Origin: a virus
Length of the DNA stretch: 36,345 nucleotides
Direction: 5' to 3' (one strand)
UHGV virus genome: UHGV-0073579
Positions 667 to 4,451 of this stretch are shown piece by piece (the first letter of the stretch is position 1; each line of letters begins with the position of its first letter). The notes under the pieces were generated by a model. That model searched no databases. It saw nothing but the letters and a program-made list of their open reading frames with translations, and was not told where the DNA came from. The position numbers were made by a program, and so were the translations under genes.

Positions 667-693
667 ATAAAAAAACCCAGCCGAAGCTGGGTT
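667..693 (-). terminator. Rho-independent terminator after ant
   Basis: Hairpin cccagc-cgaa-gctggg followed by a T-run on the minus strand (A7 on plus). Confidence 0.55.
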
Positions 694-710
694 GTCGCGT
701 TGGTTATCTG

Positions 711-1640
711 TCAGTAGTTATGTACTGAAGGAGGTAATTCTTTATTCTTAAGTCTCATCCATGCGGAAAGATTCGTTGGTCCGTCTGGCTCATTGATATC
801 AACATCTCGTGTGTGGTTTATTAAAACGTCTCTTGCCATTCCGATAACATACGAGAACTCATGGCCATAGTCGTAGCATCTGCCGGAATAGTTCGATTGA
901 ATTTGTTTTAGCGCCGGATACAGTTCGCGGAATAATGCCTGTGAGCGGTTGGCATAATCCCATAACCATACAAGGCTGTTTGCTTCTTTTGCAGAAAGCT
1001 CGTTGGTTTTCTTCTCTTGTTTGCCGATGAACTCGCCTTCAAGCGGAACGCGAGCTGCAAGTGACAGAGCTTCGGTAAACTGCTCATCGCTGATTTCTTT
1101 GTATGAACATCCAAAATGGGATTTCAGTGACGACCACATGGTGATCATCGCCTTAGCCTGTTTTTCCTTTGGCAGAGACTGACCGCGACTCATGACGAGT
1201 TGTTTAATGGCTTCCTGCTGTTCAGTGGTGATTTTACCCGGCAACGCCTTTTTAGCTTTGCGTGGGTTAACTACATGGCCTTTAGTCCAGTATTCGTAGA
1301 GCACATCGTCACACTCTTCCTGATACTGGATTACCTTGTCGCGGATTTCAGGGCGGACTTTGTTAGGGCTAATGGTTTGCAGCCAACCTGCAAGTTTGCG
1401 AAGTGCCAAACAAATAATCTCACGGCGCTGTTCATCACTAGGAAGCTGCATTGTGATTTTCACAATGGAGGTTTTAAACCGCTGCTTCATTTTCGTAAAC
1501 TGTGAAGCCCAATCCATACCCATGCCTTCAACGATAGGTTTCATTGGGGTATACGGTTCGCCGTTGTGATTGACAACATAAAGCTCTGCGCCGTGGAATG
1601 GTACATTGATAGTAGATACTGCTGTTGCTATACTTTTCAT
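711..1640 (-). CDS. ant: Antirepressor Ant
   Basis: 309-aa ORF; N-terminus [41 protein letters not shown] as recalled for P22 Ant; lies downstream of arc and opposite mnt. Confidence 0.8.
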
Positions 1641-1673
1641 GTCGTTAATTCCTATGCGTGGTTTTACGATACC

Positions 1674-1720
1674 GAAGCCCTGACTGTTCCCGCAGTTGGG
1701 GCTTCACTGTTTTGATTTCT
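1674..1720 (+). terminator. Plus-strand hairpin plus T-rich tract between ant and arc (possible terminator of a sar-like antisense RNA)
   Basis: gaagccc...gggcttc stem followed by actgttttgatttctttg on the plus strand; no T-run on the minus strand. Confidence 0.35.
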
Positions 1721-1873
1721 TTGCCGCATCAAGCATCACTTCTGAAAACGTGCGCTTGCCACTGAATACTCTTTCTCTTCTCAATTTTTCGTTCGTGCCA
1801 AATGATTCGCCATGAACAAAATTTGGTCTTAAAATGGTAATCGCAATCTCTTTGACTACTGCATCCAAGCGAA

Positions 1874-2026
1874 TCACACCGTTACCCCCTCTCTCTTCAG
1901 GCTGTCTATCAGGCGCTTGATAACCTCTGAGTTAAACGACCTGCACTCTTCCTTTGCCCTGCTACCGATAGCATCCTTTAACGACTGCGGCATCCTTACC
2001 AAAATCTTACTTATTTCTTTCTCCAT
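1874..2026 (-). CDS. arc: Arc-like ribbon-helix-helix repressor
   Basis: Internal ATG at 2026 with GGAGGG RBS; 50 aa MEKEISKILVRMPQSLKDAIGSRAKEECRSFNSEVIKRLIDSLKREG resembles Arc (..NGRSVNSEI.. motif); the track ORF start at 2062 is probably upstream of the real start. Confidence 0.7.
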   Translation of the reverse strand: MEKEISKILVRMPQSLKDAIGSRAKEECRSFNSEVIKRLIDSLKREGVTV

Positions 2027-2062
2027 GTTACCCTCCACACAAACAACTCTTTTCGAATACAA

Positions 2063-2140
2063 AAGATAGCAAAGTGAGTATATCTAGTCAAAATTTTTTT
2101 GCATACACTTTGATATCAAATTGAATACCAAAGGTGTGAT
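2063..2140. promoter_or_regulatory. Divergent arc-ant / mnt promoter-operator region
   Basis: 78-bp AT-rich interval between divergently oriented arc (minus) and mnt (plus); by analogy to P22 Pant/Pmnt; individual operators not resolved. Confidence 0.4.
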
Positions 2141-2389
2141 ATGGCAAAGGGTGTGTCAATTTCTCCAACTACGGTAAGAATCCCTGAATCTTTACGCGAG
2201 GCTCTTGCTGTCAGAGCATCAAAAAATGGTCGCTCTGTTAACTCCGAGATCGTCATGATTTTGCAAGCCGCGATTGATGAAGATAGGTCGCCAAAGTCAG
2301 TTGAGTCATTTGCTCAGCAAGAAGCTGACAAATTCAAAGAGGCGCTGCTTGAGACGCTAAAGACCATGTATGGTAAGGATGAAAAATAA
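2141..2389 (+). CDS. mnt: Mnt-like ribbon-helix-helix repressor
   Basis: 82 aa; KNGRSVNSEIVMILQAAID and C-terminal FKEALLETLKTMYGK resemble P22 Mnt; divergent from arc. Confidence 0.75.
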   Translation: MAKGVSISPTTVRIPESLREALAVRASKNGRSVNSEIVMILQAAIDEDRSPKSVESFAQQEADKFKEALLETLKTMYGKDEK

Positions 2390-2925
2390 TGCTGCACACA
2401 ATTCATTTCTTATGCCCCGTTAACACTGCCACTGTTGGGCAACTTCAGAACCACTGTCTCACCGCATTATCTCAAGGCGCAACTGAATTAAATATCCATA
2501 TATCAAGTCAGGGAGGGGAAACTGCCGCTGGCTTTACTGCGTATAACTTTCTTAAGTCACTCCCTGTTACCGTTAGAACTCACAACATAAGCAATGTTGA
2601 ATCCATAGCTAATATCGTTTTCCTGGCTGGCTCAGAACGTTTCGCAAACCCATTATCAAGATTCCTGTTACATCCTCTATTATGGGGCTTTGCCTCCCCA
2701 GCCGCCGACCATGCCAGATTGAGAGAGTACGGGAAATGCCTCGATAACGATCTTGATCGCTTCGTTGAGACGTTCAATATCGACATCGGAACCCATATTA
2801 GGTGGGCATCCCTGATAGCAGACTCGACCATTTTGGATGCTAACAAGGCTCTTGAGCATGGCATAATTAATTCCATAAAAACTGCAAGGCTGGCATCCAA
2901 TCAGGCAAACTGGTGGGTTGTTTGA
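2389..2925 (+). CDS. ClpP-fold (S14-like) serine protease homolog
   Basis: 178 aa; start overlaps the mnt stop (TAATG); ISSQGGETAAGF / SNVESIANIVFLAG / RFLLHPL segments align to ClpP INSPGG / AASMG / MIHQP, with candidate Ser and His retained. Confidence 0.65.
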   Translation: MLHTIHFLCPVNTATVGQLQNHCLTALSQGATELNIHISSQGGETAAGFTAYNFLKSLPVTVRTHNISNVESIANIVFLAGSERFANPLSRFLLHPLLWGFASPAADHARLREYGKCLDNDLDRFVETFNIDIGTHIRWASLIADSTILDANKALEHGIINSIKTARLASNQANWWVV

Positions 2926-2952
2926 TGGGTAAATCATGATTACTCCTTATAA

Positions 2953-2977
2953 AAAACCCACCTGACGGTGGGTTTTA
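2953..2977. terminator. Bidirectional terminator between convergent operons
   Basis: aaaaacccacc-tgac-ggtgggtttt: GC-rich hairpin flanked by A-run and T-run. Confidence 0.6.
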
Positions 2978-3400
2978 TTAGTGCTTGTATAGCTTGAACT
3001 CCCTGTCGAGCCATAAGACATAAAAAGTGGCTCCTATCTTATAACCAACCATAGGTGCCTTAGAGCAAAATCTGAACGCAATGAAATCCACATCTTGAGT
3101 AACATGCTTAGGAATCGGAGCCTTTATCGCGTTTCTGGCAATTTTTTCCGTCCCAAGCCCGTGTTTATCAGATTTTCGTATCTCATCCCATGACATCTGA
3201 CTTAACCTGAACAGCCTATCTGCAAATGCTGCCTTTTCATGCTTTTGGCAGCAATCTAGGCAATACCCCTTTTGTAGGTATCTAAGAGAAAATACAGGCG
3301 GACTTTTGTCTACATCATGAGATTCGTGATGGATAGAGAGGCCAACAGTAGCAGAGCTCTCTTTATCCCTCTGTTTTATTCTTCCCTTAACTCTAGACAT
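2978..3400 (-). CDS. Hypothetical 140-aa protein, coupled to the Panacea-domain gene (candidate toxin/effector)
   Basis: ORF starts 5 nt after the upstream gene's stop; basic N-terminus, Cys/His cluster (HHESH...CLDCCQKH); no family recognised. Confidence 0.5.
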   Translation of the reverse strand: MSRVKGRIKQRDKESSATVGLSIHHESHDVDKSPPVFSLRYLQKGYCLDCCQKHEKAAFADRLFRLSQMSWDEIRKSDKHGLGTEKIARNAIKAPIPKHVTQDVDFIAFRFCSKAPMVGYKIGATFYVLWLDREFKLYKH

Positions 3401-3405
3401 ACACG

Positions 3406-3849
3406 TCAGTTAATTAACGTTTTGAAAAAACCTTTCATAGAATCAAGTGTGATTTCTTGGCTAACCGCACCCTCAATGTAAGCATCTTTCCATGGCTGCT
3501 CTTCGTGAGTCATATTGCGCAGTTTCCAGGCAGAAAACTGACCATAAACTTTATACACCTCATCCAGCAATTCAATTTCATCTTCACTGAATTTTTTAGC
3601 GTCAAAGTTTTCTGGCGCAGGTAAAGCTCCGTTACCACAGTCCCTATATTTACGATACAATTCAGGAACTACTGGCCCATGCATCCAGGCTTCAATTTTC
3701 TCATTAAATAGCGGCTTACCCAGAAGAACCAGAGAAAACCCTTGGGCATAATACGTCAACTTCTGAATTTTTAGGTTAGAGATAATGTCGCCACTTTCTT
3801 CATCGCAATGCGCCAAGAAGTAGTCGGCGACATCAAAACAAGTGAGCAT
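3406..3849 (-). CDS. Panacea-domain (DUF4065; SocA/GepA-like) protein
   Basis: N-terminal DVADYFL...KIQKLTYYAQGFSLVLLGKPLFNEKIEAWMHGPVVPELY pattern typical of DUF4065; start chosen at the ATG with GGAGG 7 nt upstream. Confidence 0.7.
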   Translation of the reverse strand: MLTCFDVADYFLAHCDEESGDIISNLKIQKLTYYAQGFSLVLLGKPLFNEKIEAWMHGPVVPELYRKYRDCGNGALPAPENFDAKKFSEDEIELLDEVYKVYGQFSAWKLRNMTHEEQPWKDAYIEGAVSQEITLDSMKGFFKTLIN

Positions 3850-4223
3850 AAACATACCTCCATCTTGATAGCCGCAGCTATGTATACAACTGTGTCAAGT
3901 TGCATTTAATACCATAACAAAGCTGTCATCAATCCTTCAGAGGCTAACTTACAACCACTTTCTCGACACGTTTAAATCATTACGTTTCACATTTACTGCA
4001 TTTTCGCCGAAGTTACCTATAAGGTAATGTCACATTTCCTGCAAGTTTCATGCAATGTTGAAAAGTGAGCTATTCACTTTTCTATGACACTAAACACCAA
4101 AAATAGCACTTTTTGCTAAATCATTAGTCCAAGTTGTGGATGGTTTGTCGTTGACACGTTTTCACACACCACTCCACCAATACAGTATCATCTGGTATCC
4201 TGCTCAAAACTAAGGAGGTTGGT

Positions 4224-4451
4224 GTGAAGCGATGGTTCCTCATAATTACTGTTTTCGCGATCATTTACACTATTTTCCCTGCATTAAAAGCACCAATGCA
4301 AATAATTTCGCTAGCAATAATTGCAATTGGTGCTTTCATTGCAGTAGCCGTACTTGTGTTTAAGGTTTTAAAGTTTTTAGTTTGGCTATCAAAAGATGAT
4401 GGATGCAAAGTTCATCAAGAAAAAGAAGGCAAAATAACCAAAGTTGACTAA
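4224..4451 (+). CDS. Small predicted membrane protein (two hydrophobic helices)
   Basis: GTG start with strong RBS taaggagg 5 nt upstream; 75 aa with two hydrophobic stretches; divergent from the Panacea operon. Confidence 0.55.
   Translation: MKRWFLIITVFAIIYTIFPALKAPMQIISLAIIAIGAFIAVAVLVFKVLKFLVWLSKDDGCKVHQEKEGKITKVD

Follow-up and report, generated by a model that had tools for sequence, protein, structure and literature searches.

What does a ClpP-type peptidase gene do in a phage that builds a P22-type head? The question is raised by the UHGV virus genome UHGV-0073579, a P22-like E. coli prophage whose full 36,345-nucleotide stretch is referred to here as the window. In the window, a ClpP-like serine peptidase subunit is encoded by an open reading frame (ORF) at 2389–2925 on the + strand, which directly follows a mnt-type repressor gene. 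Its product of 178 amino acids (aa) is a short ClpP of the PpClpP1 type, distinct both from canonical ClpP and from head proteases. The gene is an accessory gene, joined to the end of mnt, and does not serve capsid maturation. We propose, with a probability of roughly 55%, that the protein is an accessory short ClpP relying on Ser72 and His95, which would hybridise with the ClpP of the host and change Clp proteolysis in the lysogen.

A ClpP fold had been proposed for the protein in a preliminary description of the locus, and profile, sequence, and structure comparisons all bear it out. The Pfam family CLP_protease (PF00574) matches residues 24–165 (E 4.8e-12), its 46.6 bits exceeding the gathering score of 20.2, and the PDB chain 9uxt_A matches residues 3–175 with an E value of 2.8e-35. 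The AlphaFold2 (AF2) model of the protein (pLDDT 91.8, pTM 0.88) has the ClpP alpha/beta fold with its handle helix. In a Foldseek search with this model, the best PDB match is 9UXT chain A (TM 0.93, root-mean-square deviation 1.7 Å), followed by about 50 canonical ClpP chains at TM ~0.82; many ClpP crystal structures give 0.80–0.83, and E. coli ClpP gives 0.82. All NCBIfam equivalog and subfamily models of ClpP score below their cut-offs (22–41 bits against 228–361 bits). A library-wide HMMER search finds 8 clusters at E ≤ 1e-30, 539 at E ≤ 1e-10, and 2720 at E ≤ 1e-3, which shows that the close family is narrow and lies within a large set of ClpP-like proteins.

The predicted nucleophile, Ser72 (codon 2602–2604, +), aligns to Ser97 of E. 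coli ClpP and Ser73 of PpClpP1, and the predicted general base, His95 (codon 2671–2673, +), aligns to His122 of E. coli ClpP and His96 of PpClpP1 (E. coli residues in the numbering of the mature protein). Both residues are invariant in 32 of 32 family sequences. The motif pairs first aligned by eye, VESIA with AASMG and LLHPL with MIHQP, are recovered by BLASTP and HMMER. Of the ClpP triad, Ser and His are retained, but the third residue is not: in the alignments to ClpP, the position of Asp171 is occupied by Ser146. Among 32 homologs, position 146 is variable (Ser, Ala, or Gly) and Thr147 is nearly invariant; in further family-wide alignments, position 146 is Ser, Ala, or Pro.

The protein starts opposite residue ~39 of the E. 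coli ClpP precursor, and ~38 N-terminal residues are gone. Judged from the alignment, the N-terminal axial loops and helix A are missing. In canonical ClpP, these elements gate the pore and contact the unfoldase. The pocket that receives the IGF/LGF loop of the unfoldase, and also binds acyldepsipeptide (ADEP), is changed as well. Its hydrophobic residues, which we take to be Y60, F82, I90, L114, and L189 of E. coli ClpP from the ClpP–ADEP and ClpX literature, are replaced in the phage clade by N, S, H, N, and K, respectively, all of them polar. The residue at the F82 position is Ser in 13 of 14 phage-clade sequences and Thr in one, and the Asn at the L114 position is invariant. Because the N-terminus is missing and the docking pocket is polar, direct use of an unfoldase by the phage protein is unlikely. 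Canonical E. coli ClpP (S14) shares with the phage protein the fold, the aligned Ser and His, and the oxyanion-hole glycines (NSPGG, compared with SSxGG in the phage protein). It differs in sequence (27% identity) and in possessing the 38 N-terminal precursor residues, Asp171 with its flanking Arg170 and Arg172, and the hydrophobic pocket.

9UXT is PpClpP1 of Pseudomonas plecoglossicida, described in 2026 by cryo-EM (PMC12900304). PpClpP1 has a truncated N-terminus and a ‘triad’ of Ser73, His96, and Pro151, and assembles into a homotetradecamer with an axial pore of 42.7 Å (PMC12900304). Its catalytic efficiency is 13-fold below that of the canonical paralog. Alanine substitution of the catalytic Ser (Ser73) or His abolishes the activity, and ~60% of it is kept when Pro151 is substituted with Ala or Asp (PMC12900304). 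PpClpP1 does not bind ClpX, but with the canonical ClpP2 it forms a stable heterotetradecamer, which is more active both alone and together with ClpX (PMC12900304).

The phage protein aligns with PpClpP1 from end to end and resembles it in length (178 and 183 aa), in the N-terminal truncation, in the positions of Ser and His (72/95 and 73/96), in the lack of an Asp at the third position, and in the loss of features needed for ClpX docking. The two proteins differ at the level of sequence (~40% identity) and at the third position, where the phage protein has Ser146-Thr147 and PpClpP1 has Pro151-Arg. The PpClpP1 clade is chromosomal, whereas the phage clade is prophage-borne and, in E. coli, joined to mnt. 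By homology to PpClpP1, the phage product would assemble into heptameric rings and tetradecamers, and its ring alone would show weak peptidase activity and would not dock ClpX or ClpA. Such a ring would pair with a ring of the housekeeping host ClpP, and the resulting hybrid ClpP particles would alter, and probably enhance, degradation that depends on ClpXP or ClpAP.

Some bacteria have an accessory ClpP paralog that enters hetero-tetradecamers (P. aeruginosa ClpP2, Listeria ClpP1, Mycobacterium ClpP1P2, and the Streptomyces ClpP paralogs). These share a concept with the phage protein, namely a second isoform with little or no activity of its own that functions once mixed with the isoform that binds the unfoldase. 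They differ from it in that they are host genes and mostly have a full or near-full triad (Asp or Asn). To our knowledge, no such paralog comes from a temperate phage. P. aeruginosa ClpP2 likewise lacks the elements that bind ClpX, as cited in PMC12900304.

The same features would also suit a poison or decoy subunit, which caps one face of host ClpP with a non-docking ring; Clp proteolysis would then be lowered or redirected, and phage proteins or antitoxins would be stabilised. The absence of the N-terminal loops, the polar docking pocket, and the hybrid formation shown for PpClpP1 agree with such a role, but in the only hybrid tested the activity with ClpX rises instead of falling (PMC12900304). 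Given this behaviour of the PpClpP1 hybrid, a dominant-negative cap is less likely, and we regard it as improbable.

The protein is under strong purifying selection. Compared with the Pectobacterium ortholog, dN/dS is 0.077 (pN 0.116, pS 0.664); in the other pairs the synonymous sites are saturated, and pN is at most 0.36. In a neighbour-joining tree, built without bootstrap, the Enterobacterales and Chromobacterium sequences form one clade, all examined members of which lie in prophages, and this phage clade groups with the short-ClpP clades of Massilia and Pseudomonas.

The ClpP-like gene is the second gene of a two-gene unit. The first is the mnt-type ribbon-helix-helix (RHH) repressor gene (2141–2389, +), which encodes 82 aa, matches Pfam Arc (PF03869, E 9.6e-11), and carries the RefSeq product name ‘Arc family DNA-binding protein’. 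In P22, Mnt is a repressor that maintains lysogeny. The ORF coordinates confirm that the ClpP-like gene starts on the stop codon of mnt, in a TAATG arrangement of translational coupling: the mnt TAA (2387–2389) and the ATG (2389–2391) overlap by one base, and a Shine-Dalgarno-like AAGGA (2375–2379) is positioned 9 nt before the ATG. The segment comprising the mnt 3' end, AAGGA, and the overlap (2314–2391, +) is the left mosaic boundary of the ClpP cassette. On the other side, a terminator-like bidirectional hairpin, AAAACCCACC-tgac-GGTGGGTTTT (2953–2976), lies between the ClpP-like gene and a convergent gene for a 140-aa protein. The hairpin has a 10-bp G+C-rich stem with A and T runs at its sides. 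It is not called by a simple consensus terminator scan, and its support comes from folding, which gives a total of −18.5 kcal/mol for 2926–2985 (z = −3.2). The hairpin is the right mosaic boundary of the cassette; homology to the PhiR12 phages stops at 2972, within it.

By the paradigm of the P22 immI region, mnt and the ClpP-like gene would be transcribed together in the lysogen. The arc-mnt intergenic region (2063–2140), from which arc/ant and mnt diverge, presumably holds Pant and Pmnt, and it contains operator-like palindromes. The promoter scan finds a sigma-70-like site in it, on the − strand (2091 to 2063). A 36-bp imperfect palindrome (2097–2132, centre 2114/2115) and inverted CACTTTG half-sites 29 nt apart (2065–2117) are candidate Arc/Mnt operators of this immI allele. 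Lysogens of another P22-like prophage, Gally of strain LF82, transcribe their mnt region, with a 40-fold induction in macrophages (PMC9928086). An identity of the window with Gally was considered and rejected; the published mnt-deletion primers are not found in the window, and the mnt of Gally is a different one.

The junction with mnt is kept across diverse phages. Within IMG/VR, 115 viral contigs carry the ClpP-like family, and in 32 of 32 loci with a ClpP-like gene of at least 97% identity, a mnt-like gene ends on the ClpP start. The Mnt proteins at these loci are 36–100% identical to that of the window and represent at least five N-terminal RHH types or alleles, and they share the C-terminal tail ETLKTMYGKDEK, so that the last 13–25 codons are common to otherwise diverse mnt alleles. 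At the DNA level, identity to the window climbs to 90–100% from 2314–2350, and is only 20–60% in the mnt sequence upstream. The N-terminal domains of Mnt differ while the tail and the ClpP gene stay the same; therefore, recombination breakpoints cluster in the mnt 3' end. The whole ant-arc-mnt-ClpP cassette (window 670–2972, 93% identity) also interrupts the tail operon of the lambda-like PhiR12 phages, between genes K and L, and the same insertion is present in about ten IMG/VR contigs. At this K–L position, in PhiR12_1 and further loci, mnt and the ClpP-like gene read against the tail genes.

A gene at least 99% identical to that of the window occurs in 128 of 5426 complete E. coli genomes (2.4%), always beside an Arc-family gene. 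The carriers include avian pathogenic E. coli (APEC) O1, CE10, and uropathogenic E. coli (UPEC) strains, and all copies are chromosomal; a search of plasmids gave no match to the gene. The mnt-coupled form is also present in six phage records and, at 80% protein identity, in a P22-like prophage of Pectobacterium. In view of these counts, of its RefSeq name as a Clp subunit, and of a homolog with a cryo-EM structure (PMC12900304), the first description of the stand-alone ClpP-like protease as unusual was overstated. That the fusion to mnt is kept so strikingly in different mnt alleles and phage backbones could reflect selection for co-expression with the lysogeny-maintenance repressor. Alternatively, the gene may simply have been inserted once, with later recombination at the conserved 3' end of mnt.

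An RHH gene that overlaps its downstream gene by one base resembles the layout of type II toxin-antitoxin loci, in which case Mnt would be the antitoxin and the ClpP-like protein the toxin. Most family members, however, stand alone with no RHH gene upstream, and the members of the chromosomal clades are solitary too. Moreover, the ClpP gene is 97–100% identical while its Mnt partner spans 36–100%. We give this reading hardly any credence.

Family members of at most 75% identity are lone genes, antisense to their neighbours, in at least six other slots of phage genomes. The family is widespread, and the hosts of prophages with family members also include Klebsiella, Citrobacter, Proteus, Pantoea, Pectobacterium, and Chromobacterium. 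One slot lies between the lysis cassette (Rz/spanin/LysC) and an HNH or small terminase gene, in prophages of Klebsiella, Citrobacter, Leclercia, E. coli, Rahnella, and Enterobacter; others lie between N and erf/ssb in Proteus, between the tape measure and DNA-circularisation genes of Mu-like Pantoea phages, and beside baseplate or tail-fibre genes. Of the 33 lone loci with enough flanking sequence, 25 are flanked left and right by genes on the opposite strand, and at no locus do both flanking genes share the strand of the ClpP-like gene. The gene thus shows the features of a moron: patchy presence, varied slots, an orientation against the surrounding operons, and its own terminator-like hairpin. 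In slot, antisense orientation, patchiness, and presumed lysogenic expression, it is like lambda bor, which lies antisense just behind Rz, and like P22 sieA, located between gene 16 and mnt. The products of these two differ from the cytoplasmic protease subunit in being membrane, exclusion, or serum-resistance proteins.

Five stand-alone members, whose proteins are only 55–75% identical, have a conserved leader in the upstream 140 nt. It opens with a terminator-like hairpin, followed by the palindrome ATGAAwwwwwTTCAT, which coincides with a plausible −35 element or directly precedes it. About 20 nt ahead of the ATG, a short hairpin of the form ACCC-N5-GGGT is found, in which one locus has GCC/GGC, a compensatory change. 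This leader suggests that the stand-alone moron may travel with its own regulated promoter. Upstream of the stand-alone homologs, LexA boxes appear only as sporadic weak matches. No partner or sensor gene is conserved beside the ClpP-like gene.

The relatives outside the phage clade are host genes. The PpClpP1 clade is found on the chromosomes of Pseudomonas, Azotobacter, and Stutzerimonas, where the gene adjoins genes for a KGG stress protein and a DUF6555 protein; a prophage location of PpClpP1 itself was considered and rejected on this chromosomal location in Pseudomonas. The synteny with KGG-repeat stress-protein and DUF6555 genes is seen at four loci from two Pseudomonas groups. It hints that the host version may belong to a stationary-phase or stress regulon, a point not taken up in the paper on PpClpP1. 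The Massilia/Oxalobacteraceae clade (~45% identity) is chromosomal as well and adjoins purine-catabolism genes.

The slots and the wide pore of the homolog bear on the main rival to the hybrid particle, in which the protein is a stand-alone, gate-less peptidase. Its wide-pore homo-tetradecamers would act without host ClpP or unfoldases on peptides and on unfolded or nascent proteins; it might clear specific small proteins of the phage or the host or, once activated, serve as an effector of anti-phage defence or abortive infection. PpClpP1 homotetradecamers are active, though weak, with their 42.7 Å pore (PMC12900304), and the docking pocket and N-terminal loops are absent in the phage protein. 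The immI/sieA and lysis-terminase slots, moreover, are typical of prophage defence and exclusion genes. However, the protein has no PADLOC match and no conserved neighbouring partner or sensor gene, and the low intrinsic activity of PpClpP1 is raised in the hybrid with canonical ClpP. We consider the gate-less peptidase unlikely, though more probable than the decoy subunit.

A prohead protease is the role implied by the phage annotations. The best PHROG match of the protein is phrog_94, ‘head maturation protease’ (E 1.5e-21), and the GenBank record of phiv205-1 annotates the gene in this way. Like the phage protein, the ClpP-related head-maturation proteases (NF045542, phrog_94, and the Stx/HK-type fusions) are phage-encoded members of the ClpP superfamily, and they are its best PHROG matches. 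They differ in that their genes are late-strand genes flanked by portal and capsid genes, and they are often fused to scaffold or capsid proteins, whereas the ClpP-like gene is antisense, solitary, and outside the head module. On the NCBIfam model NF045542 the protein scores 49.6 bits and falls short of the cut-off of 120. Proteolysis plays no part in the maturation of P22-type capsids. The late operon of the window, on the − strand, is of the P22 type and complete, with contiguous genes for the large terminase, portal, scaffold, and coat, and with genes for adaptors, needle, and ejection proteins; it contains no protease gene. Among the loci with identified flanking genes, none has the ClpP-like gene between portal and capsid genes, and one host phage, of Citrobacter, has its own Peptidase_S78 prohead protease in the head module. 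The earlier judgement that the gene is unlikely to encode a head protease is upheld: context, strand, and NF045542 score led us to reject this role, which deserves next to no weight.

The remaining neighbours lie on both sides of the two-gene unit. In the P22-type immI region, ant (711–1640, −) has the P22_AR_N and P22_AR_C domains and is preceded by arc (1874–2062, −). Between them is a 57-aa ORF (1704–1877, −; phrog_17642, E 1.3e-43), which overlaps the arc stop codon and is kept in E. coli P22-like prophages. On the right, a very hydrophobic 75-aa ORF (4224–4451, +), with two or three membrane spans predicted by eye, is antisense and lies between the Panacea gene and a gp16-like ejection gene, which is the slot of P22 sieA. 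EC.P3 and RefSeq label it ‘hypothetical’; it may be a moron or serve in exclusion.

The ClpP-like gene was initially described as convergent to the Panacea gene. The two units are indeed convergent, but the gene directly convergent to the ClpP-like gene is that of the 140-aa protein (2978–3400, −), and the Panacea gene (3406–3855, −; PF13274, SocA-like, E 2.2e-24) lies upstream of it. The 140-aa gene starts 5 nt after the Panacea gene. Its product belongs to phrog_8366, has weak sub-threshold matches to MAG6450 and to PADLOC NsnC, and has no relative in the PDB that could be found; in one identical E. coli record, RefSeq leaves the ORF unannotated. The two genes look like a toxin-antitoxin pair of the PanA/PanT type, and they form an independent module.

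The arrangement had suggested a functional link, with the ClpP-like protein as the dedicated protease of an adaptor-type toxin-antitoxin module made up of the Panacea and 140-aa proteins. In its favour, the two units converge side by side in the window, the Panacea domain is a confident match, and SocA is a ClpXP adaptor in Caulobacter. However, the units assort independently, and the suggested link is not borne out. The Panacea pair adjoins the ClpP-like gene in only six of 32 viral contigs of at least 97% identity. The mnt-ClpP unit is found without the pair in Pectobacterium, in APEC O1, where a YafO-family pair takes its place, and in the lambda-like PhiR12 phages. Conversely, the pair is found without the ClpP-like gene in Pseudomonas phages and in Salmonella phage Emek, in which mnt is followed by other small ORFs. 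In phiv205-1, the ClpP-like gene is 98.9% identical to that of the window, but the adjacent 140-aa gene is only 57.5% identical; therefore, a mosaic joint lies at the terminator-like hairpin. The partner reading is already contradicted by this distribution and largely refuted, and we hold it to be very improbable.

In the hybrid-particle reading, to which we return, a mobile prophage moron would alter proteolysis in the host in a way that favours the lysogen or the prophage, as its genomic context suggests. The protein would take no part in virion assembly and would have no partnership with the neighbouring toxin-antitoxin pair. Several points weigh against this reading. The biochemistry comes from PpClpP1, which is only ~40% identical and has Pro-Arg at the third position instead of Ser/Ala-Thr. 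Expression from the repressed prophage through the coupling to mnt is something we infer, as is the function of 2063–2140 as the Pant/Pmnt control region, by analogy with P22 immI, and the consensus promoter scan gives no match for Pmnt. No anti-phage defence model of PADLOC matches the 178-aa protein. In the searchable literature, nothing relevant was found on a prophage or phage short ClpP, whether as a moron, in defence, or in a heterotetradecamer. Finally, the chromosomal relatives of Pseudomonas and Massilia lie in host stress or metabolic neighbourhoods, and the role of the phage clade may differ from theirs. A preprint on transposon sequencing in Pectobacteriaceae mentions ClpP and ClpX only in connection with Rosmer toxins.

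A wider scenario can be offered only tentatively, as less likely than not. A host short ClpP would have been captured by temperate phages of Enterobacterales, expressed from the prophage, and wired to the immI repressor Mnt in E. coli; its ring would hybridise with host ClpP and reprogramme ClpXP and ClpAP of the lysogen.

The protein is a new, phage-borne and mobile branch of the PpClpP1-type family that was characterised in 2026. The gene has been in the databases under labels that are loose or wrong. Phage records call it ‘head maturation protease’ and RefSeq calls it ‘ATP-dependent Clp protease proteolytic subunit’, and the present analysis corrects both. Strong purifying selection and a close structural template make the hybrid-particle hypothesis directly testable. 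The finding is a lead on how prophages manipulate host proteolysis and does not reveal a novel type of molecule. Inhibition and exploitation of host proteases by phages are known; no description of a prophage that supplies its own ClpP ring was found in the searchable literature. If the wider scenario is true, the payoff could be a stabilised lysogeny, the buffering of protease-controlled toxin-antitoxin or defence modules, or the destruction of labile proteins of superinfecting phages, such as replication proteins of the lambda O type. It would then represent a new class of lysogenic conversion, in which a protease subunit is hijacked rather than a protease inhibited.

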